Assembly: GCF_004010195.1 (NCBI RefSeq)
Contig: NC_057749.1
Span: forward strand, 11,633,844 to 11,653,843
Origin: Chiloscyllium plagiosum
Taxonomy: Eukaryota
DNA length: 20,000 nucleotides
Direction of reading: 5' to 3'
Position 1 is the stretch's first letter. Every line of letters begins with the position of its first letter. A model generated the notes under the pieces. It had not been told where the DNA came from and did not search any database. It saw only the letters and a list, made by a program, of their open reading frames with translations. This document shows, piece after piece, positions 1 to 19,900 of the stretch. The translations under genes were made by a program, and so were the position numbers.

Positions 1-2218
1 CTCTTTTGTAAGACCTACCCATAGGCATAGCCTCTGATTTAGCAAAATTAATCTTATACCCTGAAAAAGCGCCAAATGCGTGAATGCATTGTATCAGGCA
101 AGGCACTGAGACTGCTGGATTTGTCCAAAAAATTAGAACATCGTCTGCATCGAGCTCTTATGTAATTTTGACCCCACTTCTGGAGTTGATATGTTGAGAT
201 CCCCATGAATGGTTTCTGCCAACGATTCAATCACCAACGTAAAAAGTAATGATGAAAGGGGACAGCCCTGCCGGCTGCCCCTAGAAATATTAAAATTGCT
301 TGATTGTATCCCGTTGGTAATGACTGCCATGAGAGGTACACTGTAAGGGACTTTACCCGTCTTATGAAAACGTCTAGAGTCTAGAGTATAGGAAAGGTAC
401 GGCCACTCAACTCGGTCAAATGCCTTCTCTGCATCTAAAGAAATCGCCAATCCCTGTATTGACGGCTGTTGGCATGCTTGAATTACATTAAGCAGCCTCC
501 TAACGTTATTGGAGGATCTGCGACCCTTTATGAAGCCCGTCTGATCCTCTTTAATAATAGAGGGTAACACAGTCTCCAGCCTTAACACAAGAGCCTTAGA
601 GAGGATTTTAAAGTCCACATTTAAGAGCAAGATGGGCCTGTATGAAGCACATTCTTCCAGATCCTTCCCTTTTTTAAGGATAAGTGAAGTATTGGCCTCT
701 CTCAGAGATGGTGGGAGACAATCATGACTGTATGAATCATTAAACATATTCAGCATCGGGCCTGACGGTGTACTTAGACTTCCCAGTGAATTCTATAAGG
801 AATTTATATCAGGACCGGTCGCCTTTCCACTCTGAAGCTGCCTCACAGCTTCCTGCACTTCTTGCTCTGATAATGGGGCATTGGGAAAGGACGGTTGTTC
901 GGGAGTCACACGCAGGAGCTTCAGATCTCTAAAAAAGGATTCCATTTTGGCCTGCCCCTCCTCACAATTCTCAGACTGATATAACTTAGAGTAGAATCTC
1001 TGGAACACCACATTAATCTTTTTAGAATCATATGTTAGGTTCACAGACCCTTCCCTAATCGCTGTAATGCTTTGTGGGGCACTTCTGTTTCTGGCAAGGT
1101 ATGCTAAGTATTTGCCTGGCTTGTTACCATGCTCGTATAACCTTTGCTTTGCAAAAGCGAGCTCCTTCTTTGCCGTCTGCTTGAGCATGGAATTTAGTGT
1201 AGACCGCAGTGCTGTAATCCTCTGTAGTTTGACCAATGAGGGTCTGTCAAAATAGGCCTTCTGAGCTGCCTTCAACCGTACTTCAAGGAGACGTTGCTGC
1301 TCACCCTTCTGCCGCTTCCTACTGGTGGAATATGAAATAACTAACCCCCTGGCATAAGCTTTGGCAGTTTCCCAGAGAACAGATGAACTATCAACCGAGC
1401 CTATGTTGATGTCTAGGAATGCCCGAAATTCCCTAGACTAATACTCCACAAATCTACTGTCCATGAGAATAAAGGGGTCCATTCGCCAGTACCTTGAATC
1501 CACTGTAACATCCTTAATCTTAACCATGAGGTACACTGGAGCATGATCAGAGATGGCAATATTACCAATCATACAGGATGCCACCAGATCCAAGGTTACC
1601 GCAGGGGTCAGAAAAAAAAAAATCAATCTTCGTGTGACATCTATGAGATTGGAGAAAAACGTGAAATCCCTACCTGTAGGGTGGAGATACCTCCAGACGT
1701 CCACCAACCCTAATTCCCCAGACAAACCCAATAACTGTTTAGTTTGTGCAGAGGGTATCGAGGGACCTTTAGGCAACCTGTCTACTGTGGGGTCCATGAG
1801 GCAGTTAAAATCTCCCCCTATAATGATGTGCCGAGACTTGAGAGACTTATCAGTTTAGGAAAAGCATCTACCACGAATTTAAGAGGATGAGTTGGGGGAC
1901 AATAAACATTTAAAATGCCATATTCTTCCCCATTTATCAAGGCTTACAAACCTCCCTTATGTGTCTTTAATACATTCCAACAATTTAAATGAGAGATTTC
2001 TCCTAACCAATATAGCCACTCCTCTACTTCTGGTATTAAATGATGAAAAATAAACTCGGTCAAAGCCATTCTGCTGTAATTTCAGATGCTTTTTGTCCCT
2101 GTAACAAAGCAATATCCACCCTATCCTTTCTAAGACTCAAGAGTACCTTCTTCCTCTTAATTGGTGAGTGACTTCCCTTGATATTCCACGTACACCATTT
2201 ACTCAAATCACTAGCCAT
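1..2218 (-). pseudogene. L1 ORF2 (APE endonuclease + reverse transcriptase), frameshifted
   Basis: ATG at 2218 gives MASDLSKWCTWNIKGSHSPIKRKK (EN start). Further motifs: GGDFNC, ISDHAPV (1438..1797), GKATGPD (793..1275), YRPILLLNVDFKILSK, DQTGF, SLDAEKAFDRVEW and RGSRQGCPLS (133..756). The catalytic YADD reads DADD near 140-151, in a shifted frame. Confidence 0.95.
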
Positions 2219-2820
2219 AATCTTCTGCAATTACATTTAAATTCCCGAGAGGCGGAACCCTAACCACAAATTGCTGAGCCTTAGTGTTGCATGGTCCACC
2301 AAATATAAAAACTACATAAACTAAAACCACTACATTTAACAAATATACAAAATTATTAAAAATAAAAAACAACAAAAACTAGAAAACAAACCAACATATA
2401 AAGCGCCAATAGCGCAGAGTAGGGGAACTCACCCCCTGCCCGGAGGGGGCAACTACCTGTCCCGAACTCCCCATAAGTAGGCATCTAACCATCTCAACCA
2501 CCTTCACTTCTCCCAGCTAGAGCCACATGGCAAGCACAAGCTAAAAAGAATAAACACCCTAGAGTATCAATATGAATTTTTTAAAATTCTTTTATTTTAA
2601 AAAAGGGGAATAAATACCCCACCCATCCTTTGGTATGTCCTGACTTAGAAATTTAAAATGTACATCTTACCCACCACCAGACATAGTTTGAACCAAATTA
2701 TTATCAAGAGAGGAAAAAAAGGGGAAAAACAAAGCTCCAACCGGATTTCCTCCATTTCTTTTACAGAATGAAAAATGCATTCCCAAGCAACAACATTTAT
2801 GCATACTACAATTGTTTAAA

Positions 2821-3626
2821 TTAGGTTAGTTTGTCCACAAAGTCTCTCGCCTTCTCCGATCTGTCAAAGGGATGCATGGATCCATCCAAGGTGATCCGAA
2901 GTACTGCCGGATATCTCAGGGAGTACTGAATCCCAAGTTCCTTCAGTCGTCTCTTGACACCATCATACAATTTTCGTTTCTGGATCACCGCCGCTGAAAA
3001 GTCCTGAAAAAACATGATCTTAGACCCCTCGTAAATTAGGGTCTTTGGATCCTTCCACTGGAGTCTGGAAGCCTTTATGACTCTCTCCTTATCCAGGTAA
3101 TGATGGAACCGCACCAGGAAAGGACAAGGGCATTGACCCATACCCGACCTCCGCGTTGCAACCTGGTGAGCCCTCTCTATCTTCAATCCTCTCATGCCAG
3201 TCTCCAAGTCAAGGAATTTCGGAAGCCAATCTTCAACAAATTCCACAGGCCACTCACCTTCCTTACTCTCAGACAGACCAATGATCCAAATGTTTTTTAT
3301 CCTACCCCTGTTTTCAAGATCATCCGCTTGGTCACGTAAATTACGAACCTGTGTCTTCAGGGCTTGGATCTCTTCCTTGAGTGAACTGGCATCAGCTTCC
3401 ACCTGTGCTCTACCTCATCTGTCCTCTTCTCCAGGTCTCCCAGCTGCTGCTCATCCTTCTGCAGCATCAGAGAGACTGGAGCCTGCTTCTCTTTAATCTG
3501 TTTCCCCAACATCTCGCGAGATTTCGAGAGCTGGTTCACCAGGTCCTGGAGAGTAATCGGCTCCGAGGCTGCAGCAGGCTGAGCTGCAGGCCCGGTCTTA
3601 GATGCTCCTCCTCCCTTTTTAGGCAT
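2821..3626 (-). pseudogene. L1 ORF1 (coiled-coil + RRM + CTD RNA-binding protein), one frameshift near 3400
   Basis: ORFs 3357..3626 and 2821..3402 join. Basic N-terminus MPKKGG, heptad-rich coiled coil, DLENRGRIKNIWIIGLSE (cf. L1 RxRRNNIRIIGLPE), IERAH, FFQDFS..QKRK, LRYPAVLRIT. Confidence 0.92.
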
Positions 3627-3993: not shown

Positions 3994-4009
3994 GAGGACA
4001 CTTTTTTAA

Positions 4010-4420
4010 ACTTAGGGATCGCCCTTTTAGGAGATATGAGAATTTTCTCTTTAAGAGTTGGGCTACCTTTGAACTCCCTGCCTCAGAAGGTGATGGAGGA
4101 TGAATCTTTAAATAATTTTAAGGTAGAGGTAGGTAGACGTCCATTAGGCAGAGGAATCAAAGGTTACCAGGGTAGTTGTAAATGTAAAATTCAAAACACA
4201 AACTGAGCAGCCATGATCTTATTAAATAAGGCAATAAAACTGCAAATACTGGAATCCAAAGTAGATAAGTAGGACGCTGGAAGAACACAGGAAGCCAGGC
4301 AGCATCAGGAGGTGGAGAAGTCAATGTTTCGAGTATAACCTTTCTTCAGGAATGGAGGTGGGGGTTGGAAGATCAGATTTCAGGAACCTATTAGTCTACT
4401 TCTGATTGCTACTTGTGTTT
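4010..4420 (+). mobile_element. Old CR1 LINE 3'-end fragment, interrupted at ~4232-4372 by a PLE-derived insertion
   Basis: Decayed ORF2 C-terminus (NSLPQKVMEDESLNNFKVEVGR) followed by the CR1 tail CAGCCATGATCTTATT; the tail resumes after ~4372. Confidence 0.7.
4232..4372 (-). mobile_element. Short Penelope-like terminal fragment with degenerate hammerhead motif
   Basis: Minus strand reads ATTC-CTGAAGA-AAGGTTATACTC-GAAA-CATT-GACT, then CTGATGCTGCCTGGCTTCCTGTGTTCTTCCAGC, homologous to 10817-10890 and 18519-18595. Confidence 0.75.
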
Positions 4421-4434
4421 ATTTGTTAGTAAGC

Positions 4435-4560
4435 GAGGAGAGAGATTAAGAAATTTCATAACGAAAGATTTTAGGAGTGTGGAATATTTTGCCACAGAGA
4501 ATATTTGAAACAGGAGAAATTACATCTTTTAAGAGAAAATTAAGTGAGTATTTGTCACAG
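4435..4560 (+). mobile_element. Highly decayed CR1-like 3' fragment
   Basis: GGAGTGTGGAATATTTTGCCACAG reads GVWNILPQ, like the CR1 C-terminal WNxLP motif. Confidence 0.4.
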
Positions 4561-4889
4561 GCAATAATGATATTATTAAACTGGAGTTAGTTTTTCATTG
4601 TTCTAGCACAGTTGGTGGAGAAGGAGCTTCAGTGTGAGCTTTAATTCAGTTAGCCATGTTCCATAAAACTCATGCCTACTGATTACTAGCTTCCCTTTTT
4701 TTTTTAACCAAAACACACAAAACAGAAGAGAAAACCAGAAGGCAAATGTTTCCCAACTCCGAGAACTAACTATTCCCCACAACTCAGAGTCAGTCACCTG
4801 AAATGAGGAGATTCTCACCTCCTGGAACTAGCTTCCCATATTTATGCAAGCAATTCACACCCAATTAACTTTAATTTATATATCCATCA

Positions 4890-4982
4890 CCTGGGCCCAC
4901 CTGTGACCCAAGAGGTTCAGTTCCCATCTGCTCAAAAAGTGTGTATTAACATCTTTGAACAAGTTGATTTTCAAAATATCTG
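4890..4982 (+). mobile_element. Short tRNA-derived SINE-like repeat (degenerate copy)
   Basis: GGTTCAGTTCCCATCTGCTC..GTGTGTATTAACATCTTTGAACAAGTTGAT..AAAATATC aligns with 13572-13638; B-box-like GGTTCAGTTCC. Confidence 0.6.
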
Positions 4983-5403
4983 TATCCATCAACAGTTCCC
5001 TCATTCCATTAGGCTGCAAGCCTTCCCTCAGACTATATTAAATATTAAATAATAACATCCTTCTGTGAACAAAAGACTTCCATTTCTTTGGAGTCCACTC
5101 TGATCTCAGCTTCTCCTAAAGTGCTTTACCATACACCTAAGTAGCTTTGAAGTGGGAATTAATATATGGATAATATGGTGTAAATGACTATGTGTATTTT
5201 TTTAAAAAAATTATCTCAGAGAGTTTTCATTTCCAGAATTGTTTTTGGAGGATTCTATAGATGGTTATAAATAAAATGATCTAATCCTCTGAAATTTATT
5301 TATACTCTTGATGATCATGTAGTTAGTTAACCAAATGGAACAGTGAACTCCGACATTATAGCTCAACATCTTCAGATACTGAAAATGAAAGTTTTCTGTG
5401 ATT

Positions 5404-5540
5404 TTTGATGAAAGGTTATCAAGTTTTAAAAAATCAGCTATATTTTCCTCTCCACAGCTGCTGCCTGACCTGCTTGGATGTCCAAATAGTTTCTAACTTT
5501 ATTTCATATTACCAGAACCCACAGGAGATTGATTTTCTAA
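5404..5540 (+). mobile_element. Old Penelope-like terminal fragment with eroded hammerhead motif
   Basis: TTGATGAAAGGTTATCAAG... followed by GCTGCTGCCTGACCTGCT, the 3' module shared with the other PLE-terminal copies. Confidence 0.55.
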
Positions 5541-5616
5541 ATGGACTTCAGAATATTTTCTTGTTCAAATTGACAATATCGGTCTATTGTTAGAGCCATC
5601 ATCTAATCTCTGCGCC

Positions 5617-6515
5617 TCTTTTTAAATTATTCAATTTGTGGGATATGGGCATTGCTGGCTGGCCAGCATTTTTGCCCATCCCTAGTGCACTTGAGAAGGT
5701 GGTGGTGATGAGCTGCTGCCTTGAACCGCTGCAGTCCATTTGCTGTAGAGTGACCCACAATGCCATTAGGGAGGGAATTCCAGGATTTTGACGCAACAGC
5801 AGTGAAGAAACAACAATATATTTGCAAGTCAGTATGGTGAGTGGCTTGGAGGGGAACTTGAAAATGGTGATGTACACATATATCTACTGCCGTTGACCTT
5901 CCAGATGGAAGTAGTTGTGGGTTTGCAAGGTGCTGTCTAAAGGACTTGGGTGCATTTCTGCAGTGCATCTTGCAGCTAGTACACATTACTGCTACTGAGC
6001 ATTGGTGGTGGAGAAAATAGATGCTTTTGGATGCAGTGCCAATCAAGTGGCTGCTTGATCCTGGATGGTGTCAAGCTTCTTGAGTGTTGTTGGGGCTGCA
6101 CACATCCAGACAAATGGGGAGTATTCCGTCATACTCCTGACTTGTCCCTAGTAGATGGTGGACAGGCTTTGGGGAGTCAAGATGTGAGTTACATGCTGGA
6201 GTACTCTTAGCCTCTGACCTGGCCTTGTAGCCACTGCGTTTATGTGGTTAGCCCAGTTGAGTTTCCAGCTGAGGTCTGGAACACCCAGGATGTTGTTAGT
6301 GGCAGATTCAGTGATTGTAACACTATTGAATGTCAAGGGGCGGTGGTTAGATTGTCTGTCTCTTTTTGGGAATGCTGATAGGCTGGCATTTGCGAATATT
6401 ACTTGCCACTTCCCCTCTTCTGACCTTATGATGGAGGGAAGGCCATTGCTGAAGCAGCTAAAGATGGTTGGGTCTAGGACATTACTCTGAGGAACGCCTG
6501 CAGCGATATCCATGA
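5617..6515 (-). mobile_element. CR1-group (L2/Crack-like) LINE 3' fragment with internal deletion
   Basis: ORF 6148..6528: AGVPQSNVLDPTIF (RT GVPQGSVLGP motif), KWQVIF, NILGV..KLNWANHI. ORF 5627..6046: SWNSLPNGIV..LQRFKAAAH. A-rich 3' end at ~5617-5630. Confidence 0.8.
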
Positions 6516-6519
6516 AAAG

Positions 6520-6578
6520 TTCAGCCATGTTCTTATTGAATGGCAGAGCAGAGTCGAGGGGCCATAAGGTGACACTCA
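6520..6578 (+). mobile_element. Isolated CR1 3'-tail fragment
   Basis: TCAGCCATGTTCTTATTGAATGGCAGAGCAGAGTCGAGGGGCC, homologous to the CR1 tails at ~4208 and ~17363. Confidence 0.6.
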
Positions 6579-7047
6579 GTCAAATGGCATTGGTTTGCCA
6601 CCCGCAAACAACTGTAGACCAAAAGGACTTCCTAGCAGCATTGGAATCAACCCTGAAGCACAACAGACTTACGGAAGAAACCCAACAGACCATCAGACAG
6701 ACAGTAGCAACAACATTAAACAGGAAGAAAGCAGGGAACACTCTCAACACACAGGAAAGGAAAGCCCTAGAAGGACTCAGAAAGACAGAAATATTGTAAT
6801 CCTCCCTGCAGACAAAGTGTGCATGATAGTCAGTCAGTCATTCTCAACAGAACAGTACATTGAAAAGGCTACTCAAAGATATCGACATTACCAACAGGTG
6901 GCGATGGACCTGACTCCACAGCTAGAAAAGCACATCACAGCATCACTGAAGAAACTCCACAAATCAGTTGAAATTAACAACACATATTTCCAAAGAATGA
7001 AATTTGATGGATCCATTTCTATGGATTACCTAATGTACACAAACCAT

Positions 7048-7063
7048 CCCCCCCCCCCCCCCC
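7048..7063 (+). repeat. Poly-C homopolymer expansion inside the PLE
   Basis: About 16 consecutive C in the HKP..PLRPI region. Confidence 0.9.
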
Positions 7064-7576
7064 CTCTCCCCGACCCATAATCTCACTTCCCGGCACACCA
7101 ACATGCAGATTAGCAAAAGAATTTCACCGTAAACTGAAATACCTAATAGAAGACTCATGCCACTCCATCCACTCCACCCAAAAATTCCTGAAGATCAAAT
7201 ACACAAAGATAGGAGAGGACAAAGTCATGTTCTCCTTTGACACAGTGGCCCTATTCACATTAATTAACATCAGCCTGGCCAAAGAAACACTGACCACACT
7301 ACTAGATGAACCAAGGATATAAACACCAGACAGCACCAACTCTATCAGCAAGGATAGCATCCTCAAGCTAGTTGTTTGTGCCTCACTATTCACTTCGCCT
7401 TCATTGACAAGACTTACAGGCAAATCAATGGAACACCAATATCAGGATTCTTGGCAGAAGCAGTGATGCAGAGATGAGGACGAACACTTTGCCCCACGAT
7501 CCAACCCAAGCTTTGGGTCCACTATGTGGATGACACCTTTGTCATCATGAAACGAAACAAATTAAAGAAAATAACC

Positions 7577-7898
7577 ACGGTGGCACAGTGGTTAGCACTG
7601 CAGCCTCGCAGCGCCAGAGACCTGGGTTCAATTCCCGACTCAGGTGACTGACTGTGTGGAGTTTGCACATTCTCCCCGTGTCTGCGTGGGTTTCCTCCGG
7701 GTGCTCCGGTTTCCTCCCACAGTCCAAAGATGTGCAGGTCAGGTGAATTGGCCATACTAAAATGCCCGTAGTGTTAGGTAAGGGGTAAATGTAGGGGTAT
7801 GGGTGGGTTGCGCTTCGGCGGGTCGGTGTGGACTTGTTGGGCCGAAGGGCCTGTTTCCACACTGTAATGTAATGTAATGTAATCTAATCTAATCTAAT
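7577..7898 (+). mobile_element. tRNA-derived V-SINE (HE1-like, elasmobranch), near full length
   Basis: A box TGGCACAGTGG (7581-7591), B box GGTTCAATTCC (7625-7635), V-domain TGTGTGGAGTTTGCACATTCTCCCCGTGTCTGCGTGGGTTTCCTCCGGGTGCTCCGGTTTCCTCCCACAGTCCAAAGA, CR1-like tail GGGCCGAAGGGCCTG, terminal (TGTAA)n(TCTAA)n. Confidence 0.92.
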
Positions 7899-8786
7899 AT
7901 AATTAGCAACATCCTTACTGGCATAAATGTTACAAAAGAGGAAGAGTTCAACAACAGACTCCCCTTCCTAGATGTCACAGTGGAACAAACAGTCAATAGA
8001 GAACTGTAGACCAGCGTCTATAGGAGAGCAACACACACAGACCAGATACTCAACAACAGAAGCAATCATCCCAACAGCCACAAACAGAGCTGCATCAGGA
8101 CATTATTTAATTGGGCCACAACACACTGCAGCACCCAGGAACTAAGAGCAGCAGAAGAAAAACACTTATACAGCGTATTCAAGAACAGGTACCTGATAAA
8201 CACAGTCCGCTGATTCTGAAACAACAAACCCAACAAGACGACACAACAACATGCCCAGAGACTCTAGACACACTACCATACATCAAAGACATCTCTGAGA
8301 TGACTACTAGACTACTCTGACCCCTTGGCATCATGGTAGCCCACAAACCTACAAACACACTGAAACAGATACTGATGAATGTAAAGGACCCAGTACCAAC
8401 AACTAGCAAAACAAATTCATATACAAAATACCCTGCAAGGACTGCAAGAAACGATAAGTCAGACAGGCAGGCAAGAAACTAGCAACCAGGATACACGAAC
8501 ACCAACTAGCCACCAAAGGACATGACCAGCTATCACTAGTATCCTTACACACAGATGAAAGAGGACACCACTTCAACTGGGGCAAGACATTCTAGGACAG
8601 GCTGAACAGAGACATGTACGGAATTCCTAGAGATCGGCATTCAAACCGAATCTCCATCGATAAACATATCGATTTGGACCCATTTACCAACATCTGAGAA
8701 AAAGGATCGGAAATAATATTACCCACCTTAACATTCGAAGACACATAAATAGAAAGCAGGATCGAACACCAGTGCTTCACCGGAGG

Positions 8787-8828
8787 CTCACTGATGATGT
8801 TACCTAGCATGGTGACAAAACGTCTGAG
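8787..8828 (+). ncRNA. Minimal type-I hammerhead ribozyme motif in the PLE terminus (G12 mutated to A)
   Basis: CTCA-CTGATGA-T-GTTACC-TAGCAT-GGTGAC-AAAA-CGTC-TGAG. Helix I is CTCA/TGAG, helix II is GTTACC/GGTGAC, the palindrome is ACGT and the cleavage triplet is GUC. Confidence 0.8.
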
Positions 8829-8904
8829 AACAAACCTACCAGCTCAGCGAGCAAACTTACAACCTGAACTATATTTCTGCAGCAGCTATGCAAATGGTCA
8901 TCAT

Positions 8905-9700
8905 TATAGAGTGTCAATCTCTTGCCTTTTCCCCATATTCTTGCACACTATTTCTATCCAAATAATCATCTAATATCATCTTGAATTCCTCAATTGAACT
9001 TGTCTCCACCACATTTCCAGGCAATGCATTCACACCCTAACTACTCTCTATGTGAAAACCTTTTTTCCTCATATCATCTTGCTTATTTTGCACATCACTT
9101 TAAATCTAAGCCCGTTCATTATTGTTCCTTTAATCAGTGAGAAGAACTTCTCCTGAACTACTGCATCCAGCCTGCTCATGATTTTGAAAACCTCTATCAA
9201 ATCTCTTCTCAGTCTTTTTCTCTCCGAGGTGAATAGTCCCAACTTCTTCAATCTCTCTTCATAACTGTTCATCACAGGAACTAAATTGCTAGGCACTTTC
9301 TTCAGTGCATTCACATCTTTCCTATAATGTGGTGCCCAGAACTATTCGCAATACTCTGGCAAAGGTCTGAAAAGTATGTTTAATATCACCTCCTTGCTCT
9401 GATACTGTATGCTTGTTTTGATAAAGCAGAGGAATGCTTTATTTACTGCTCTCTCCAGTTGTCCTATCACTTCCAATAACCTGTGCACATAGTACACCAG
9501 ATCTCTCTGTTCCTGCAACCACTTTAGAATTGTGTTTTATTTTATATTGTCTTTAAGTGTTCCTCCTATTAAAGTATATCATCTCACATCTCTCTGCATT
9601 GAACCTCATCTGCCACCTGCCATCCACTCCATCAATTTGTCAATATCCTTTTGGAGTACTACACTACCCTCCCCATAATTCACAATTCTTCTATTCAATT
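8905..9700 (-). mobile_element. CR1 LINE 3' fragment, degenerate
   Basis: ORF 9069..9314: SYEERLKKLGLFTSERKRLRRDLIEVFKIM. GCAGATGAGGTTCAAT (WQMxFN motif) near 9600-9620 on the minus strand. Confidence 0.85.
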
Positions 9701-9904
9701 TTTTTTACATCCAAGTTGTTGCGGTTCTCACTGAAGGTACAGGGAAAGGTTGACTCAGTAATTGTTCAGTTTTTAAGTCACTGGTTAATCATCACTGAAG
9801 AGTTAACTTTCCACAATCCTTGGTCTAACGCAGTCCTTTCCTCTTTTTGGTCCATAATCCAAATACAGAAAAATGAAAAGATATGGTCTTTGCAATTATA
9901 TACT

Positions 9905-10460
9905 TTGTCAAATTGACACAGTACTCCAGATGTAGCCTCACCAATACTTTGCTATAAAAAAACTGATCAAACTGTGGATGCTGTAGTTCAGAAACACAAA
10001 CAGAAATTGCTGGAAAAGCTCAGCAGGTCTGGCAGCATCTAGAGAGAAATCAGAGTTAACGTTTTGGGTCGAGTGACCCTTCCTCAGAACTCACCAATAC
10101 CCTGTACAGTTGCAGTATAACTTCACTTCCATCATATTTCGTTCTCTTTGCAATAAATGATAACATATGATTTTTCTTCCTAATCACTTGCTGTTAATGC
10201 ATTCTAATGTGCCAGCTCACTCAGATTGCTCTGTACCATTGGGTCCTGCAACTTCTCTACATCTAAATAGGGTACTGCTTCTCTATTCTTCTAGCCAAAC
10301 TAGAAAAGTTCGCATTTACCCATGCTGTACTCTATCTGCCAAATGTCTGCTTATTCCTTTGCAGACACATTTTTTTACCAAACTTCATGATATCAGCAAA
10401 TGTACCTACCATACCTTTGTTCCCGTCATCCGAATGATTGATACAGACTGTAAATAGGTA
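9905..10460 (-). mobile_element. Old CR1 LINE RT fragment, interrupted at 9948-10089
   Basis: With the insertion removed, the minus strand reads LYRVLVRLHLEYCV (CR1 C-terminal motif). Also FADI-like (TTTGCTGATATC) and WQIEY-like remnants. Confidence 0.75.
9948..10089 (-). mobile_element. ~140-bp PLE-derived mini-element with hammerhead motif and 11-bp target-site duplication
   Basis: Flanked by CTCACCAATAC (9937-9947 and 10090-10100). Minus strand reads AGTT-CTGAGGA-A-GGGTC-ACTC-GACCC-AAAA-CGTT-AACT, then GATGCTGCCAGACCTGCTGAGCTTTTCCAGCA. Confidence 0.85.
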
Positions 10461-10504
10461 AGTGGGGGTCAGTTAGCTCAGTTGACTGATCCTGGTTTCA
10501 TAAC

Positions 10505-10945
10505 ACAAGGCCACACGCAAACTGGAGGAAGAACACCTTATCTTCTGCCTCAGGAGCATACGGCCTTAACGTAGAATTCACCAGCTTCCAAATCTCCCCA
10601 CACTCCCACCTCATCCCAGACCCAGCCCTTCCTCTCCACCCTACCCCCTTAACCTGACCCTACCTGTCCATTTTCCTTCCCACCTATCTGCTCCACTCTT
10701 CCCACTGATCAATCACAATCACCTCCTACCTGCATCCACCTATTGCCATCCCACCCACCTTTTCCACAGCCCCACCCCTCAATTTATTTTGCAGCTCCCT
10801 TTCCGTTCCCGCAGTACTGATGAAAGATTCTGCCCTGAAACGTTGACTTCCCTTCCCTGATGCTGTTTGATCTGCTGTGCTTTTTCCAGCTCCGTTCTTT
10901 ATCCATTCTGACTCGTCAGAATCTGCAGTTCTCACTATCTCCAAG
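10505..10945 (+). mobile_element. 3' fragment of a second Penelope-like family (GIY-YIG C-terminus, pyrimidine-rich UTR, hammerhead motif, 3' module)
   Basis: ATRKLEEEHLIFCL..GLNVEF (cf. PLE RKLEExHLIFRLGT..PxGLNxEF), a C-rich tract, CTGATGA (10817-10823)..GAAACGTTGACT, then GATGCTG..TGCTGTGCTTTTTCCAGC. Confidence 0.8.
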
Positions 10946-11474
10946 GATTTTTAAAAGTTGAGTGCATGTTGATCTTCTGACAATATGTTACAGTCAGCAT
11001 TAAGGACTGAGTGTTGAGTGAGAATATCCGAGAGAGATCTTTCATTGGCTGTCACACTCTGCACAACCCTGATTGACTCTTGAACGTTGGAACAGGAGCA
11101 GTCCTCAGATAGAATATGATGCAGGGAGAAAGATTTATTCCTATTGCACTTTTGGTTATTTTCAATTTAAAATATTTTGCCACTGGGCTGTAACTTTAAA
11201 TGGAATATATGTTGTAAATATTAAAACTATTATATTTGTTATAATAGAGAAACCAAAGAGTGGAATATGATATGAAAATACAAACATAGGATCATGCAAA
11301 TTCAAAACAGGAATAGGCCAATATGGAAACAAGTTGGATCTTATCGTATCTGCTTTAATTCTCAAATCATACTAGTACGTCCACACATTTAATGAATAAA
11401 TTAAACTTTTGGAATTAAAAAATGTTGCTATATTGCTATTTTTGAATTAGGAAGATGTGTCTCTCAAAACATTA

Positions 11475-13204
11475 ATTGTTGTCAAATACAAGAGGATGGC
11501 CAGAGTGAGGGGTAGGGCCAATCGGAGTAGTGGAGGGAACTTGTGTGCGGAGTTAGAGGAGGTCCTTAATGAATACTTTGCTTCAGTATTCACTACTGAG
11601 AGGGACCTTGATGTTTGTGAGGACAGCGTGAAACAGGCTGATATGCTCAAACAGGTTGATGTTAAGAAGGCAGATGTGCTAAAAAATTTGAAAATTATAA
11701 GGATAGATAAGCCCACTGATCCAGACAGAATATACCCAAGATTACTACAGGAAGCGAGGGAAGAGATGGTGCCATTGGTGATGATCTTTGCATACTCACT
11801 GTCTACTGGAGTCTTGCCAGATGATTTGAGGGTGGCAAATGTTATTCCCTTGTTCAAGAAAGGGAATAGGGATAATCCTGGAATTTACAGACCAATCAGT
11901 CTTACGACTGTGGTGGGCAAATTATTAGAGAAGATTTTGAGAGACAAGATTTCTGATTACCTAGAAAACAATAGATTGATTAGAGCTGGTTAGATGGCTT
12001 TGTGAAGGGCAGGTCATGCCTCACAAGCCTTATTGAATTATTTGAGAATGTGACAAAACACGTTGACGATAGAACTGTGAATGTGGTGTACATGGATTTT
12101 AGCAAGGCGTTTGATAAGGCTCCCCATGGTAGGCTCATTCAGAAAGTAAGGAGGCATTGGATATAGGGAAATTTGGCTGTTTGCGTTTTGAATTGGGTGG
12201 CCCATAGAAAACAGAGGGTGGTAGTTGATGGAAAGCATTCAGCCTGGAGCTCAATGGCCAGTAGTGTTTTGCAGGGATCTCTTCTGATACCTCTGCTTTT
12301 TGTGAATTTTATAAATGACTTGGATTAGGAAATGGAAGGGTGGTTAGATTTGCTGATGACACGAAGGTTGGTGGAGTGGTGGATAATGTTGAGGGCTGTT
12401 GCAAGTTGCAACAAGACATTGACAGGATGCGGAACTGGGCTGAGAAGTGGCAGATGGAGTTCAACCTGGAAAAGTGTGAAGTGATTCATTTTGGAAGGTG
12501 AATTTGAATGCAGAATACAAGGTTAAAGGCAGGATTCTTGGCAGTGTGGAGAAACAGAGGGATCTTGGGATTCACATCCATAGATCCCTCAAAAGTTGCC
12601 ATCCAAGTTGATGGACTTCTTAAAAAGGGAATGGTATGTTGGCTTTCATTAGCAGAGGGATTGAGTTTAAGAGCCACGAGGTTATGCTGCAGCTCTGTAG
12701 AGCCCTGGTTAGACTACACTTGGAATGTTGTGTTCAGTTCTGGTCACCTCATTATTGGAAGGATGTGGAAACTTTAGAGAGGGTGCAGAGGAGATTTACC
12801 AGGATGCTGCTTGGACTGGAGGGCATGTCTTATGAAAAAAGGCCCTAGCTCACTCAACCTTTCTCATTGGAGTGAAGGATGAGAGGTGACTTGATAGAGG
12901 TGATGATGAGAGGCATAGAGTGAATAGTCAGAGACTTTTTCCCAGGGCAGAAATGGCTATCACAAGGGGGCATAATTTTAAGGTGATTGGAGGAAAATTT
13001 CGAGGAGATGTAATAGGTTGGTCCTTTACAGGTGCATGGAATGCACTGCCAGTGGTGGTGCTAAAGTCAGACACGTTAGGAACACCTTGGATGATAGTAA
13101 AATGAAGGTTATGTAGGTTAGTTTAATCTTAGAGCAGGATAAAAGGTTGGCACAACATCAAGTGCCGAAGGGCCTGTACTGTGCTGTACTGTTCTATGTT
13201 CTAT
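11475..13204 (+). mobile_element. CR1 LINE, 5'-truncated, RT region to 3' tail, degenerate
   Basis: LNEYFASVFT, PDRIYPRLL, ANVIPLFKKGNRDNPGIYRPISLT, DFSKAFDK, FADD (12349-12360), LVRLHLECCVQFWSP, WNALP; tail GCCGAAGGGCCTG..GTTCTATGTTCTAT. Confidence 0.95.
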
Positions 13205-13312
13205 ACGGAGCTGCTTTTGCTGGGAGTTGTTGTTCTAAAAGACAGGGATGAAGCATATTATTAGCCTACAGTCTAAGATAAAGACTCAAAACTCTTGTTT
13301 TCTTTTCTGCAG

Positions 13313-13369
13313 GTGCTTTTATCAGGGCTAATTGGTGTTGTTTCCTGGAAAAGACCCATCTCCCTGGTG
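13313..13369 (+). CDS. ENTREP2: Internal 57-bp coding exon of ENTREP2/FAM189A1 (CD20-like transmembrane region)
   Basis: Acceptor CTCTTGTTTTCTTTTCTGCAG ending at 13312 and donor GTGAGT at 13370-13375; phase 0/0. Translates to VLLSGLIGVVSWKRPISLV, versus recalled human FAM189A1 VLLSGLIGVVSWKRPLSLV. Lies in non-repetitive sequence. Confidence 0.88.
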
Positions 13370-13529
13370 GTGAGTAGCAACAGCAGCACCAAATTAACCG
13401 GAGCAACAAGACAGGGCTGTTGAATTGCATCAATGCCATTATGGGTGGTACAGTCATATCACTCAGGTTTTGCCATCTCATTACCATTAGGTAATGATTT
13501 TATGAATAATAACAATGTGGAGGGCTGTT

Positions 13530-13640
13530 ATGGTGCAGTGATAGTTTGCTCATCTCTGAACCAGGAGATCCTGGTTCACGACCTACCTGCTGCAGAGGTG
13601 TGTAATTAAATCTCTGAACAGTTCGATCAGAAAATATCCA
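13530..13640 (+). mobile_element. Short tRNA-derived SINE-like repeat
   Basis: A-box-like TGGTGCAGTGA, B-box-like GGTTCACGACC; 3' half matches 4915-4982. Confidence 0.65.
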
Positions 13641-15561
13641 GAAGTGTGAGCAACGCAAGTTAAGGCTTAGCTATTTTGCCTGAGGCTGACAACTAAAAGT
13701 TAAGAAAATCAACACAGTTACTCTTTGCACAGAGCAGTGGCTACTTGTGGGAATTAATCAGAAATGCCTAGTCCTTTTTCCATGAAACATATTTCTATTC
13801 CCAGATTATGCGTGGAGACTATAATTGTCTATTTACATTACAGAACTCAGGCTGGAGACAGGGCCTTAAACTAAACAGGGGAAGAGGGCTCAGTTATAGG
13901 GGAAATTAGAAAACTTGAATTAAAGAAGGAATTTAGAGTTGAATTAAGAGTGCAGAATTCAGGAGAGATTATTAAAATTCCGGCACAGACACAAATAGGA
14001 GAGAGTATATGGAAAGGGATAGCAATCAAACTTCAATCACGTTGGACAAACGAATGACAGAGAAGAGGGGTGGCTAATACAGGACTGAAGGTGTTATACC
14101 TGAATGCACACAGTATAAGGAATAAGGTAAATGAGCTTTTGGTGCTGATTGAAATTGGCAGGTATGACATGGTGGGCATCACGGAGACGTGGCTGCAAGG
14201 GGATCAGGATTAGGAGCTGGATATTCAAGGATATACATCCTGTCAAAAAAATAGCCAGGTGAGCAGAGGTAGTGGGGTTGCCTTATTAGTATGAAATGAA
14301 ATTAATAGTAAGAAACAAAGTAGGATCAGGTGTGTAGAATCTGTGTGGGTAGAATTAAGAAACTGTAAAAGGTAAAAAAAATGACAGTTGGAATTATGTA
14401 CAGGCCTCTAAACAGTAGTCAGGAGCTGGGGCACAAGATACACCAGGAGATGGAAAAGATGTGTAGGAAAGGCAAAGTTACAGTGATCGTGGGGGATTTC
14501 AATATGCAGGTGGACTGGGAAAATCAGGTTGGTAGTGGACTGCAAGAAAAGGAATTTGTGGAATGTCTATGAGATGGCTTTTTGGAGCAATTTGTGCTGG
14601 AGCCCACTAGGGAACAGACAATACTGGATTTAGTGTTGTGCAGTGAGATAGACTAAGGGAGCTTAAGGTGAAGGAACTCTTAGGAGTTAATATGATTGAA
14701 TTTACCCTGCAATTTGAGAGGGAGTAGATAGAATAATAGGTAATTGTATTCCAGCTGAATAAAAGCAACTACAGAGGCATGAAATAAGAGCTGGGTAGAA
14801 TTGGACTGGGAGAGGACCCTAGCAGGAAACATAGTGGAACAGTAATGGCAGGAGTTTCTGGGAATAATTCAGGAGACACATCAGAGATTCATCTAGAGGG
14901 AAAAGCAGCATGGTACAGGGAGGATGAGGCAACCATGGCTGACTTGGGAAGTCAGGGATAGCACAAAAGCAAAAGGGAAAGTATATCATGCGGCGAAGGG
15001 CAGTGGGAAACCATAGAATTGGGAAGCTTATAAAGACCAACAGAGGACAACAAAAAAAAGGGAGTGGATTAAATAGGAAAGTAAGCTAGCCAGTAATATA
15101 AAGGAAGACTGTAAGAGTTTCTTCAGATATACAAATGGCAAAAGAGAGGCAAAAGTGGACATTGAGCCGCTGGAAAATCTTGCTGATGAAATAGTAGTGG
15201 GGAACAAGGAAATGGCCGAGGAACTGAATAATTACTTCACATCAGTCTTCGCAGTGTAAGACACGAATAATATTCCAACAATTCAAGAGAGTAAGGGGGC
15301 AGAGCTGAGTATGGTGGCCGTCACTAAGGAGAAGTGACTAGAAAAACTGAATGGCCAGAAGGTGGATAAATCACCTGGACCAGATGGACTACACCCCAGA
15401 CTTCTAAGGGAGATATCTGAAGAGATAGTGGAAGTGTCAGTGGTGATCTTTTAGGAATTGCTACATTCAGTAAGGGTCCTAGAGGATTGGAAAATTGCTA
15501 ACATGACACTCCTATTTAAAAAGGGAGTAAGGCAAAACACAAAAAAAATTATAGACCTATT

Positions 15562-15610
15562 GAATTTAGAAGGATGAGGGGTGATCTATTTGAAACTTAC
15601 AGAATACTGA
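15562..15610 (+). mobile_element. 49-bp ectopic CR1 C-terminal fragment inserted into the RT motif NYRPISLTS
   Basis: GAATTTAGAAGGATGAGGGGTGATCTATTTGAAACTTACAGAATACTGA (EFRRMRGDLFETYRIL) splits ..AGACCTATT|AGCCTAACC.. Confidence 0.8.
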
Positions 15611-16128
15611 AGCCTAACCTCAGTCATGGGTAAGATCCTGGAATCCATTGTGAAGGATGAGATTTCTGAGTACTTGGAAGTGCATGGTAAAATAAAGCCA
15701 AGTCAGCATGGTTTCATCAAGGTGAGGTCATGCCTGAAAAATCTCCTGGAATTCTTTGAGGAACTAATGAGTAGGTTAGATTAAGGAGAGTCAATGGATG
15801 TTATCGACCTGGACTTCAAGGAGGTCTTTGGCAAGGTGCCACACTGGAGGCTACTGAGTGTCTAAAGGCCTATGGTGTCAGAGGTAAGGTGCTAGCATGG
15901 ATTGAAGCTTGGCTGTCTGGCAGAAACAGAGAGTGGGGATAAAAGAGTCCTTCTCAGGAAGGCAGCCGGTGACAAGTGGTGTTCCGCAAGGCTCCGTGTT
16001 GGGACACAACTTCTCACTTCATACACTAACAATCTAAATTAAGGAACTGAGGGCATTCTGGCTACGTTTGCAGATGATACAAAGATAAATAGAGGGATAG
16101 GTAGCAGGAGGAGGCAGGGAGGCTGCAG

Positions 16129-16652
16129 TTCTGGTCACCACATTACCAAAAGGGTATGGACGCTTTGGAGAGGGTGCAGACAAGGTTTACGAGGATGTCG
16201 CCTGGTATGGAAGTGCTAGCTATGAAGAGATGTTGAGTAGGTTAGGATTGTTTTCATTAGGAAAAAGGAGGTCGAGGGGGAAACCTGATTGAGATCTACA
16301 AAATCACGAAGGTATGGATAGGGTGGATAGAGATAAGCTTTTTCCCCAGAGTGAGGGATTCAATAATGAGAGGTCGTGTGTTCAAGGTGAGAGGTAAAAC
16401 GTTTAAGGGGGATACATGCGGAAAGTACTTTACACAGAGGGGGATAGGTGCCTGGAACGTGTTGCCAGCAGAGGTAGTAGAGGCAGGCATGGTATATTAA
16501 TTTAAGGTGCGTCTGGACAGATGCACGAGTAAGTGGGGAGCAGTGGGATACAGATGCTTAGGAATTGGGCAATAGGTTTAGACAGTAGATTTGGATCGGC
16601 TCAGGTTTGGAGGGCCAAAGGGCTTGTTGCTGGGCTGTAAATGTTCTTTGTT
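16129..16652 (+). mobile_element. Nested CR1 3' fragment of a different subfamily inside the 13850-17435 CR1
   Basis: Host GGCTGCAG|AAGGATTTGGAC (RLQKDLD) is split. The insert runs from FWSPHY to its own tail GGGCCAAAGGGCTTG..GTTCTTTGTT, with CAG on both sides. Confidence 0.88.
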
Positions 16653-17072
16653 CAGAAGGATTTGGACAAGTTAGGAGAGTGGGCAAAAAAGTGGCAGATG
16701 GATTACAACATAGGAAAGTGAGGTCATGCACTTTGGTAGAAGAATAGAGGCATGAACTCTTTTCTAAATGGAGAGGAAATTCAGAAGTCTGAAGTGCAAA
16801 GAGACTTGGGAGTAGTTAGGAAGGCAAATGCTGTAACGGCATTTATTTTGGGAGGACTTGAATTTAAAAAAGCAGGAATGTACTTATGAGGCTCTGGTTA
16901 GACCACATTTGGATTATTGTGCCTAGTTTGGTCCCCATATCTCAGGACGGGTGTACTGATCCTGGAGCGTATTCAGAGGAGGTTCATGAGAACGGTCCCA
17001 TGGATGAAAAGCTTAACGTATGAAGAACGTTGGAAAATTCTGAGTTTATATTCAATGGAATTCAGAAGGATT

Positions 17073-18084: not shown

Positions 18085-18392
18085 AGGCAGCAGAGTGGTT
18101 CCTCAGTACTAGGGACCCAGGTTTGATTCCAGCTTTGGGCGCTATGTGTGGAGTTAGCACATTCTTTCTGTGTCTGCATGGGTTTCCTCCCACAGTCCAA
18201 CGATGTACAAGTTAGGTGAATTGGCCATGCTAAATTGCCCACAGTGTTCAGGGATATGTAGGCTAAGTGTATTAGTCAGCGGAAATGTAGAGTAATAGGG
18301 TAGGGGAATGGATCTGGGTGGGATACTCTTCAGAAGGCCAGTGTAGACTTGTTGGGCTAAATGGCCTGTTTCCACACTGTCAGAATTCTATA
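18085..18392 (+). mobile_element. V-SINE (HE1-like), older copy with small deletions
   Basis: B-box-like GGTTTGATTCC, V-domain TGTGTGGAGTTAGCACATTC..GGGTTTCCTCCCACAGTCCAA, tail GGGCTAAATGGCCTGTTTCCACACTGT..ATTCTAT; homologous to 7577-7898. Confidence 0.88.
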
Positions 18393-18396
18393 TAGC

Positions 18397-18620
18397 TTTT
18401 TTTTCTCCACTCATTCACAGCATGCAGGCCTTGTTGGTTAGGCAGTTAAAACTCAGCCATATCGCTTGTGTCTGGAGCCACATGTAGCCAGACCAGATAC
18501 AGGCACAAGTTCCCTTTCCTGATGAAGGGCTTATGCCCGAAACGTCGATTCTCCTGCTCCTTTGATGCTGCCTGACCTGCTGTGCTTTTCCAGCAACACA
18601 TTTTTAAGCTCCTAAAAGGT
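18397..18620 (-). mobile_element. Degenerate SINE fragment (possibly Deu-domain/SacSINE1-like), interrupted at ~18519-18610
   Basis: Minus strand CTGGTCTGGCTACATGTGGCTCCAGACAC..GGCTGAGTTTTAACTGCC resembles a recalled shark SINE body; poly-A end at ~18398-18405. Confidence 0.5.
18515..18612 (+). mobile_element. ~95-bp PLE-derived mini-element with intact hammerhead core
   Basis: CTGATGA-A-GGGC-TTAT-GCCC-GAAA-CGTC-GA (18519-18548), then GATGCTGCCTGACCTGCTGTGCTTTTCCAGCA. Confidence 0.85.
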
Positions 18621-19489: not shown

Positions 19490-19900
19490 CACATAGAACA
19501 TAGAACAATACAGCACAGAACAGGCCCTTCGGCCCACGATGTTGTGCCGAACTTCTAACCTAGATTAAGTACCCATCCATGTACCTATCCAAATGCTGCT
19601 TAAAGGTCGCCAATGATTCCGACTCTACCACTCCCACGGGCAGCGCATTCCATGCCCCCACCACTCTCTGGGTAAAGAACCCACCCCTGACATCTCCCCT
19701 ATACCTTCCACCCTTCACCTTAAATTTATGTCCCCTTGTAACACTCTGTTGTACCCGGGGAAAAAGTTTCTGACTGTCTACTCTATCTATTCCTCTGATC
19801 ATCTTATAAACCTCTATCAAGTCACCCCTCATCCTTCGCCGTTCCAACGAGAAAAGGCCGAGAACTCTCAAACTATCCTCGTACGACTTCCTCTCCATGG
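19490..19900 (-). mobile_element. CR1 LINE 3' fragment, relatively young
   Basis: Uninterrupted ORF 19560..19898 (SYEDSLRVLGLFSLERRRMRGDLIEVYKM..FFTQRVVGAWNALP), with tail GGGCCGAAGGGCCTG and (GTTCTAT)n terminus. Confidence 0.95.

Follow-up and report, generated by a model that had tools for sequence, protein, structure and literature searches.

How a short segment carrying a hammerhead motif came to interrupt an old retrotransposon fragment, and whether it is a unit in its own right or the stub of something longer, is the question raised by this locus. The segment, an insert of 142 bp, occupies 9948..10089 (minus strand) of the window, by which is meant the whole 20,000-nucleotide stretch of DNA analyzed. 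It splits a host fragment at 9910..10418 (minus strand) that is collinear with window copies at ∼12614-12740, ∼16810-16930, and 12331-12494 and that we take, as regards family name, to be CR1-like. Minus the insert, the host flanks aligned gap-free across the site to the copies at ∼12614-12740 and ∼16810-16930, the two of four regions tried that exceeded the alignment threshold. Each of these two copies contains one unduplicated equivalent of an 11-mer, CTCACCAATAC, that is present exactly at 9937..9947 and 10090..10100 and is absent elsewhere in the window on both strands. An open reading frame upstream of the ∼12614-12740 copy gave a weak Pfam match to RVT_1 (E 0.021, below the curated cut-off).

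The two 11-mers (plus strand) adjoin the 3' side (9937..9947) and the 5' side (10090..10100) of the element, and the pair is the longest repeat found around the core. The perfect 11-bp target-site duplication (TSD) described in the initial annotation, which had put the insert at ∼140 bp, was therefore borne out, as was its view of a discrete insertion event rather than erosion, given the duplication at the boundaries and the single 11-mer in the paralogous host repeats. The further claim that excision restores a CR1 frame held in part; with the insert and one 11-mer removed, a 14-residue frame on the minus strand is open, but this frame is short and the host fragment contains stops on either side of it. 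At two other repeat 3' ends in the window, 12860-13204 (plus strand) and 19493-19854 (minus strand), both of which we presume to be CR1-like, the sequences lie in opposite orientation, are 71% alike, and terminate in short tandem tails of a kind not found in the insert at 9948-10089.

By itself, a pair of 11-mers at a spacing of 100-200 nt is no rarity, three occurring in the window against a mean of 0.84 in 200 shuffles. By contrast, the chance that such a pair would coincide to within ±5 nt with independently defined element boundaries was estimated at about 6e-5. This figure bears on the reading in which the insert is the residue of an originally longer one, reduced by deletion or by pLTR-pLTR recombination, or in which the paired 11-mers are a coincidence. 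Recombination and deletion are both described as sources of solo pLTRs (PMC3846280), and recombination between direct pLTRs would retain the TSD; the three pairs in the window likewise speak for coincidence. After erosion, however, the two TSD copies would no longer both be complete and adjoin the two ends, and recombination, though conceivable for this one copy, does not account for the inverted joints found at the same position (see below). This reading appears extremely improbable.

Two contigs of run X6, among the best 12 of 37 rows, skip from 9942/9943 to 10099; the 3 or 2 intervening letters restore a single 11-mer, and the contigs are best read as paralogous host repeats. At two shared positions, most paralog reads depart from both copies of the TSD (26/40 and 31/40 reads). 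That these two differences are shared by most paralog reads indicates that the duplication copied the locus's own version of the target, although a subfamily difference could also be their cause. The bases of the TSD adjoining the 5' end of the element (10090-10091) also fit the upstream sequence of the repeat family itself. Because family sequence thus reaches two bases into the right TSD copy, the junction is consistent with 2 nt of microhomology and a TSD of 9-11 bp.

Inspection of the insert for a core pattern and for published features of minimal hammerheads (PMC4209133) identified a minimal type I hammerhead at 10053..10092 (minus strand). Read on this strand, the insert opens with two bases followed by the core CUGAGGA (10087-10081). 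Helix I is formed by 10092-10088 paired with 10057-10053, an unpaired A (10080) precedes a 5-bp helix II (10079-10066), position G12 corresponds to 10065, and the sequence 3' of position 12 reads AAAC and then GUU, with a palindromic AACGUU in place of helix III. The features tested, namely the unpaired base before helix II, G10.1-C11.1, and the palindromic 15.2-16.2, were all present. Cleavage is predicted between 10058 and 10057, 32 nt inside the insert from its 5' end. This 5' end falls within helix I, in line with the claim that the two coincide, but it lies 2-4 nt before core residue C3 (10087) and not at a clean helix edge.

At position 12 (10065) the insert has A, in contrast to the G of the family consensus derived from raw-read loose ends behind 10040. 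Given that G12 is the general base of the hammerhead (PMC6155905), the insert copy is, judged from its sequence, probably catalytically inactive. A search of Rfam returned no hammerhead at the insert at E<=1, the sole match in the window being a microsatellite.

Downstream of the hammerhead is a 3' module (9977..10039, minus strand) that is conserved among window copies and common to several subfamilies. A possible outer helix pairs 10039-10033 with 9983-9977 around an inner hairpin at 10024-10009. Across five window copies, the outer 7-bp helix was kept in 89% of cells, and the paired share was reached in 16/500 shuffles with a structure derived from one row, so that these pair counts are suggestive only. 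Folding energies were not beyond those of shuffled sequences (z of -1.13 for the insert and -1.03 for the module). Of the hammerhead and the "structured 3' module" originally annotated, both are present, but the term "structured" is weakly founded. The module begins with an ATG followed by 16 open codons (10038-9991, minus strand) that were similar in 4/4 translated copies, after which there is a stop. By analogy, this stretch could represent the first codons of the open reading frame of a Penelope-like element (PLE); first codons within the pLTR have been described for other PLEs (PMC3846280).

The insert ends in a T-rich 3' segment (9948..9962, minus strand) with neither poly(A) nor a short tandem tail, and family similarity fades here, read depth dropping from ∼6,200 at 9970-9999 to ∼170 at 9940-9969. 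The last ∼8 bases may be filler rather than family sequence. In the orthologous contigs of organisms B and C there is a C at 9953, and that of organism C has two extra A residues after 9955. Searches of the insert revealed no tRNA head and no Rfam family, and no A or B box was found on the element's strand at one mismatch. A classical SINE was rejected, there being no tRNA-, 7SL-, or 5S-derived head with A/B boxes and no poly(A) or LINE-type tandem tail.

Four further, diverged copies that combine the hammerhead with the 3' module are present in the window at 4220-4355 (minus strand) and at 5400-5530, 10817-10945, and 18513-18612 (plus strand). Judged by eye, 4/5 window copies of the module, the insert included, appear to begin near the core. 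The copy at 10817 is preceded by ∼310 nt (10504-10816) that resemble, and are likely to be, element body. The first codons upstream of this copy resemble an endonuclease C-terminus; a weak search with the 42-residue read-through upstream of it returned no homologue, and a 21-residue stretch there matched no Pfam family. A search for TSDs at the five other hammerheads of the window found none longer than 7 bp.

Several other repeats lie within the window. A broken long element at ∼6490-8870 (plus strand) ends in a different hammerhead motif at 8791 and is interrupted at ∼7545-7900 by another repeat. We take its open reading frame pieces to resemble a Penelope-type reverse transcriptase and endonuclease; no convincing Pfam match was obtained with three of these pieces. 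Two copies of a ∼230-bp repeat, which we assume to be SINE-like, are found at 7653-7865 and 18145-18380 (plus strand) and are 77-89% alike in blocks. A fragmented LINE with upstream open reading frames, presumably L1-like, spans 133-3414 (minus strand) and contains an RVT_1 domain at 136-792 (Pfam, E 3e-24); among the seven other window open reading frames submitted to Pfam, this was the one clear RVT_1 match, a second being weak.

To what extent the insert is representative of a family was addressed with public read data. All or part of the stretch was present in 18 of the 24 runs listed, from three organisms, and four runs were aligned to 9550-10420 at 85% likeness. In raw reads of organism A (run X19, 1.93 Gb), depth reached ∼6,400 across the hammerhead and 25,000 in the core of the module, compared with less than ∼2.5 in the lowest flank bins, the mean of the 13 lowest of 30 flank bins (chosen by eye) being 0.56. 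On the assumption of a 3-5 Gb genome, these depths correspond to about 10,000-16,500 copies of the subfamily at 85% identity and to 39,000-65,000 copies of the 3' module, both values being lower bounds.

In 4/4 runs, loose ends piled up behind 10091, and their consensus was alike in 17 of the first 18 letters. These loose ends were taken from the best 24 of 1,312 rows, with no more than 30 letters of upstream consensus visible. The presence of a common upstream consensus in all four runs indicates that a longer parent element exists. Agreement with this consensus was 0.51, 0.40, 0.37, and 0.41 in the four runs, and many family copies continue into unrelated flanks instead of parent sequence. 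An agreement of 0.37-0.51 is consistent with many ends lying nearby, whether the copies are stubs of the parent or members of a dedicated short family.

Joints within the reads place many of these ends more precisely. Among the best 15 of 230 joint rows, 14 were head-to-head, opposite-strand inversions at 10081-10092, and 184/192 raw reads from those 14 rows end at 10086-10092. This suggests that the 5' ends of the family cluster at helix I, as seen in the best-supported rows only; the view of these ends is censored, as the window itself ceases to match the parent at 10091-10092. Directly before the first base of the insert, the parent consensus has a pyrimidine-rich stretch and AG, resembling a splice acceptor, and in Drosophila Penelope an intron is described as ending at the 5' end of helix I (PMC4209133). 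The link between this AG and a splice acceptor is weak since the family ends scatter around the insert start.

The same data bear on the possibility that the unit is a non-LTR retrozyme monomer, for which a ribozyme-cut and circularized RNA was reverse-transcribed and inserted; a retrozyme-like derivative was among the options of the initial annotation. The type I hammerhead, the lack of coding capacity, the low GC content, and a TSD of more than 4 bp all agree with retrozymes as described in PMC7229834, and retrozymes have been proposed to derive from PLE pLTRs and to occur as solo monomers (10.64898/2026.07.22.740005); joints that "go back", moreover, occur in a few contigs (one of the best 15 of 230 rows). 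Yet no tandem repeat was detected at the insert, the locus being a single copy and not an array, and the 5' end of the insert precedes the predicted cleavage site by 32 nt, so that its ends do not match the cut. The hammerhead is of the minimal PLE type and not canonical, and inverted rather than tandem joints dominate. A retrozyme origin is thus very unlikely, and this part of the earlier proposal was not sustained.

Greater weight attaches to a second alternative, in which the ∼130-140-nt unit is itself a self-propagating, non-autonomous, PLE-dependent, SINE-like family with a putative internal pLTR promoter, re-copied in trans. The family numbers at least ∼10,000 copies, its depth is nearly flat across the hammerhead with many ends at the front, and most window copies of the module seem by eye to begin near the core. 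Precedents include the internal promoter held by the pLTR of Penelope (PMC2377424), the sufficiency of pLTR sequences for mobilization in trans (PMC3846280), and putative non-autonomous PLEs in algae (PMC8557442). Against this, a share of the copies runs into the common upstream sequence in 4/4 runs, and the ends scatter over 10081-10092 instead of falling on one base. Within the window, moreover, several subfamilies that have diverged from one another contain the short form alike, an indication of a common mechanism rather than of a single master copy. On balance, we consider a self-propagating family unlikely. The SINE-like PLE derivative lacking a Pol III promoter was another option of the initial annotation; a dedicated family of this kind is not needed, given the share of copies that run into common upstream sequence.

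The insert is most probably the pLTR end of an endonuclease-bearing PLE, generated by target-primed reverse transcription of an uncleaved RNA. A PLE derivative with its 5' end at the ribozyme was among the options originally put forward, and it is the best reading of a longer parent, inverted joints, and a minimal hammerhead. Counting against it, the protein searches upstream of the 10817 copy tied no coding parent to the family, and the other hammerheads of the window yielded no TSD above 7 bp. With respect to the nicking enzyme, the priming route, and the reason for the stop point, we infer the following minimal scheme. The endonuclease of an autonomous partner would have introduced staggered nicks 9-11 nt apart in the old host repeat. 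Reverse transcriptase, primed from a nick, would then have begun copying at a fixed position ∼100-110 nt 3' of the hammerhead cut site, the distance between this cut site and the putative initiation point being 102-110 nt here. The uncleaved RNA would have been copied back through the hammerhead, with synthesis stopping at the front of helix I; that the whole hammerhead is kept, with a 5' end upstream of the cut site, implies that the copied RNA was uncut at this position. The new end would have been joined to the target by 2 nt of microhomology, and fill-in would have produced the TSD. The recurrent stop would most likely reflect either a template RNA whose 5' end lies at this point or stalling of the enzyme at the hairpin. 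Decay of the copy, including loss of G12, and its inheritance by at least three organisms would have followed.

A more specific version of this PLE scheme, which we regard as possible but doubtful, would involve run-off synthesis. Here the enzyme would start at a copy of the internal initiation site near the 5' end of the transcript and copy to the start of the RNA, so that a single element would give rise to promoter-bearing stubs of uniform length by the tens of thousands, a portion of them being re-transcribed and re-copied as a SINE-like family with neither a Pol III promoter nor ribozyme cleavage. In Penelope, both the promoter and the transcription start are located within the pLTR (PMC2377424). 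If the run-off reading is true, the 5' ends of the stubs would map PLE transcription starts from genomic DNA.

The age of the insertion was assessed from orthologous contigs. The 3' junction is crossed at the orthologous site by X5 (organism B; 9591-10017) and X6 (organism C; 9550-10016), with ∼70 letters lying within the insert. X5, X6, and X10 also reach across the 5' junction, with only 26 letters inside the insert, fewer than the 31-letter bar. Divergence of the flanks was 3.4% for organism B and 5.5% for organism C. An empty orthologous site, put forward earlier as a check on the insertion, was not encountered, the site being filled in both organisms compared, B and C. The insertion is therefore old and shared, having been inherited by at least three organisms, and could serve as a presence/absence marker.

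Taken singly, the locus matters little, being an old and probably catalytically dead stub of a known class. As a clean example of a hammerhead that was apparently uncut in the copied RNA, it agrees with the one in vitro PLE study described in PMC11167929, and the family to which it belongs constitutes a large natural data set on where PLE reverse transcription stops and on the role of the hammerhead. A limited search of the literature, to which Repbase and Dfam did not belong, found no study of this hammerhead family in cartilaginous fish and is no proof of novelty; a 2026 retrozyme preprint (10.64898/2026.07.22.740005) sampled one such fish. A pattern scan of metagenomes yielded 14 loci, of which 0/14 extend past 19-28 bases, and these were set aside as chance matches.

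Comparison with known systems places the insert closest to PLEs. Non-LTR retrozymes (Cervera and de la Pena 2020, PMC7229834; Li et al. 2026, 10.64898/2026.07.22.740005) are, like the insert, non-coding and related to PLE pLTRs, carry a type I hammerhead, and can occur as monomers. They are described, however, as tandem repeats with a hammerhead per unit that is cleaved to give circular RNA, whereas the insert stands alone, its motif is minimal and mutated at G12, and its ends bear no relation to the cut site.

The solo hammerheads reported by Cervera and De la Pena (2014, PMC4209133) resemble the insert in their conserved core, G10.1-C11.1, helix III palindrome, and short helix I, as well as in the unpaired base between positions 9 and 10.1 and in their occurrence as thousands of single dispersed copies. 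Most PLE minimal hammerheads are single according to that study, which ascribes them to truncated PLEs. The copy number obtained here for one subfamily (about 10,000-16,500 at 85% identity, for an assumed 3-5 Gb genome) is higher than the 4,000-9,000 reported for coelacanth and frog; in the available portion of that paper, sharks are unmentioned and neither the clustering of 5' ends nor the TSDs of solo motifs are analyzed.

For EN+ PLEs, Arkhipova et al. (2013, PMC3846280) and Craig et al. (2021, PMC8557442) describe TSDs of 8-10 bp, 5' microhomology, 5' truncation, and solo pLTRs, together with an inverted, truncated partner copy at the 5' end. The insert is similar in its short TSD, its microhomology, its 5' truncation, and its solo occurrence. 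The inverted truncated 5' partner was seen in other family copies but is absent from the insert, which, unlike full EN+ PLEs, is without coding sequence.

A final comparison is provided by PAc, a Poseidon element of the green anole (Frangieh et al. 2024, PMC11167929). PAc is described as preferring AT-rich targets, and its open reading frame begins at helix II; the available text of that study does not take up the generation of short stubs in large numbers. In vitro, PAc used mainly uncleaved RNA as template and initiated synthesis 85-92 nt past the cut site, as compared with a putative start-to-cut spacing of 102-110 nt here.
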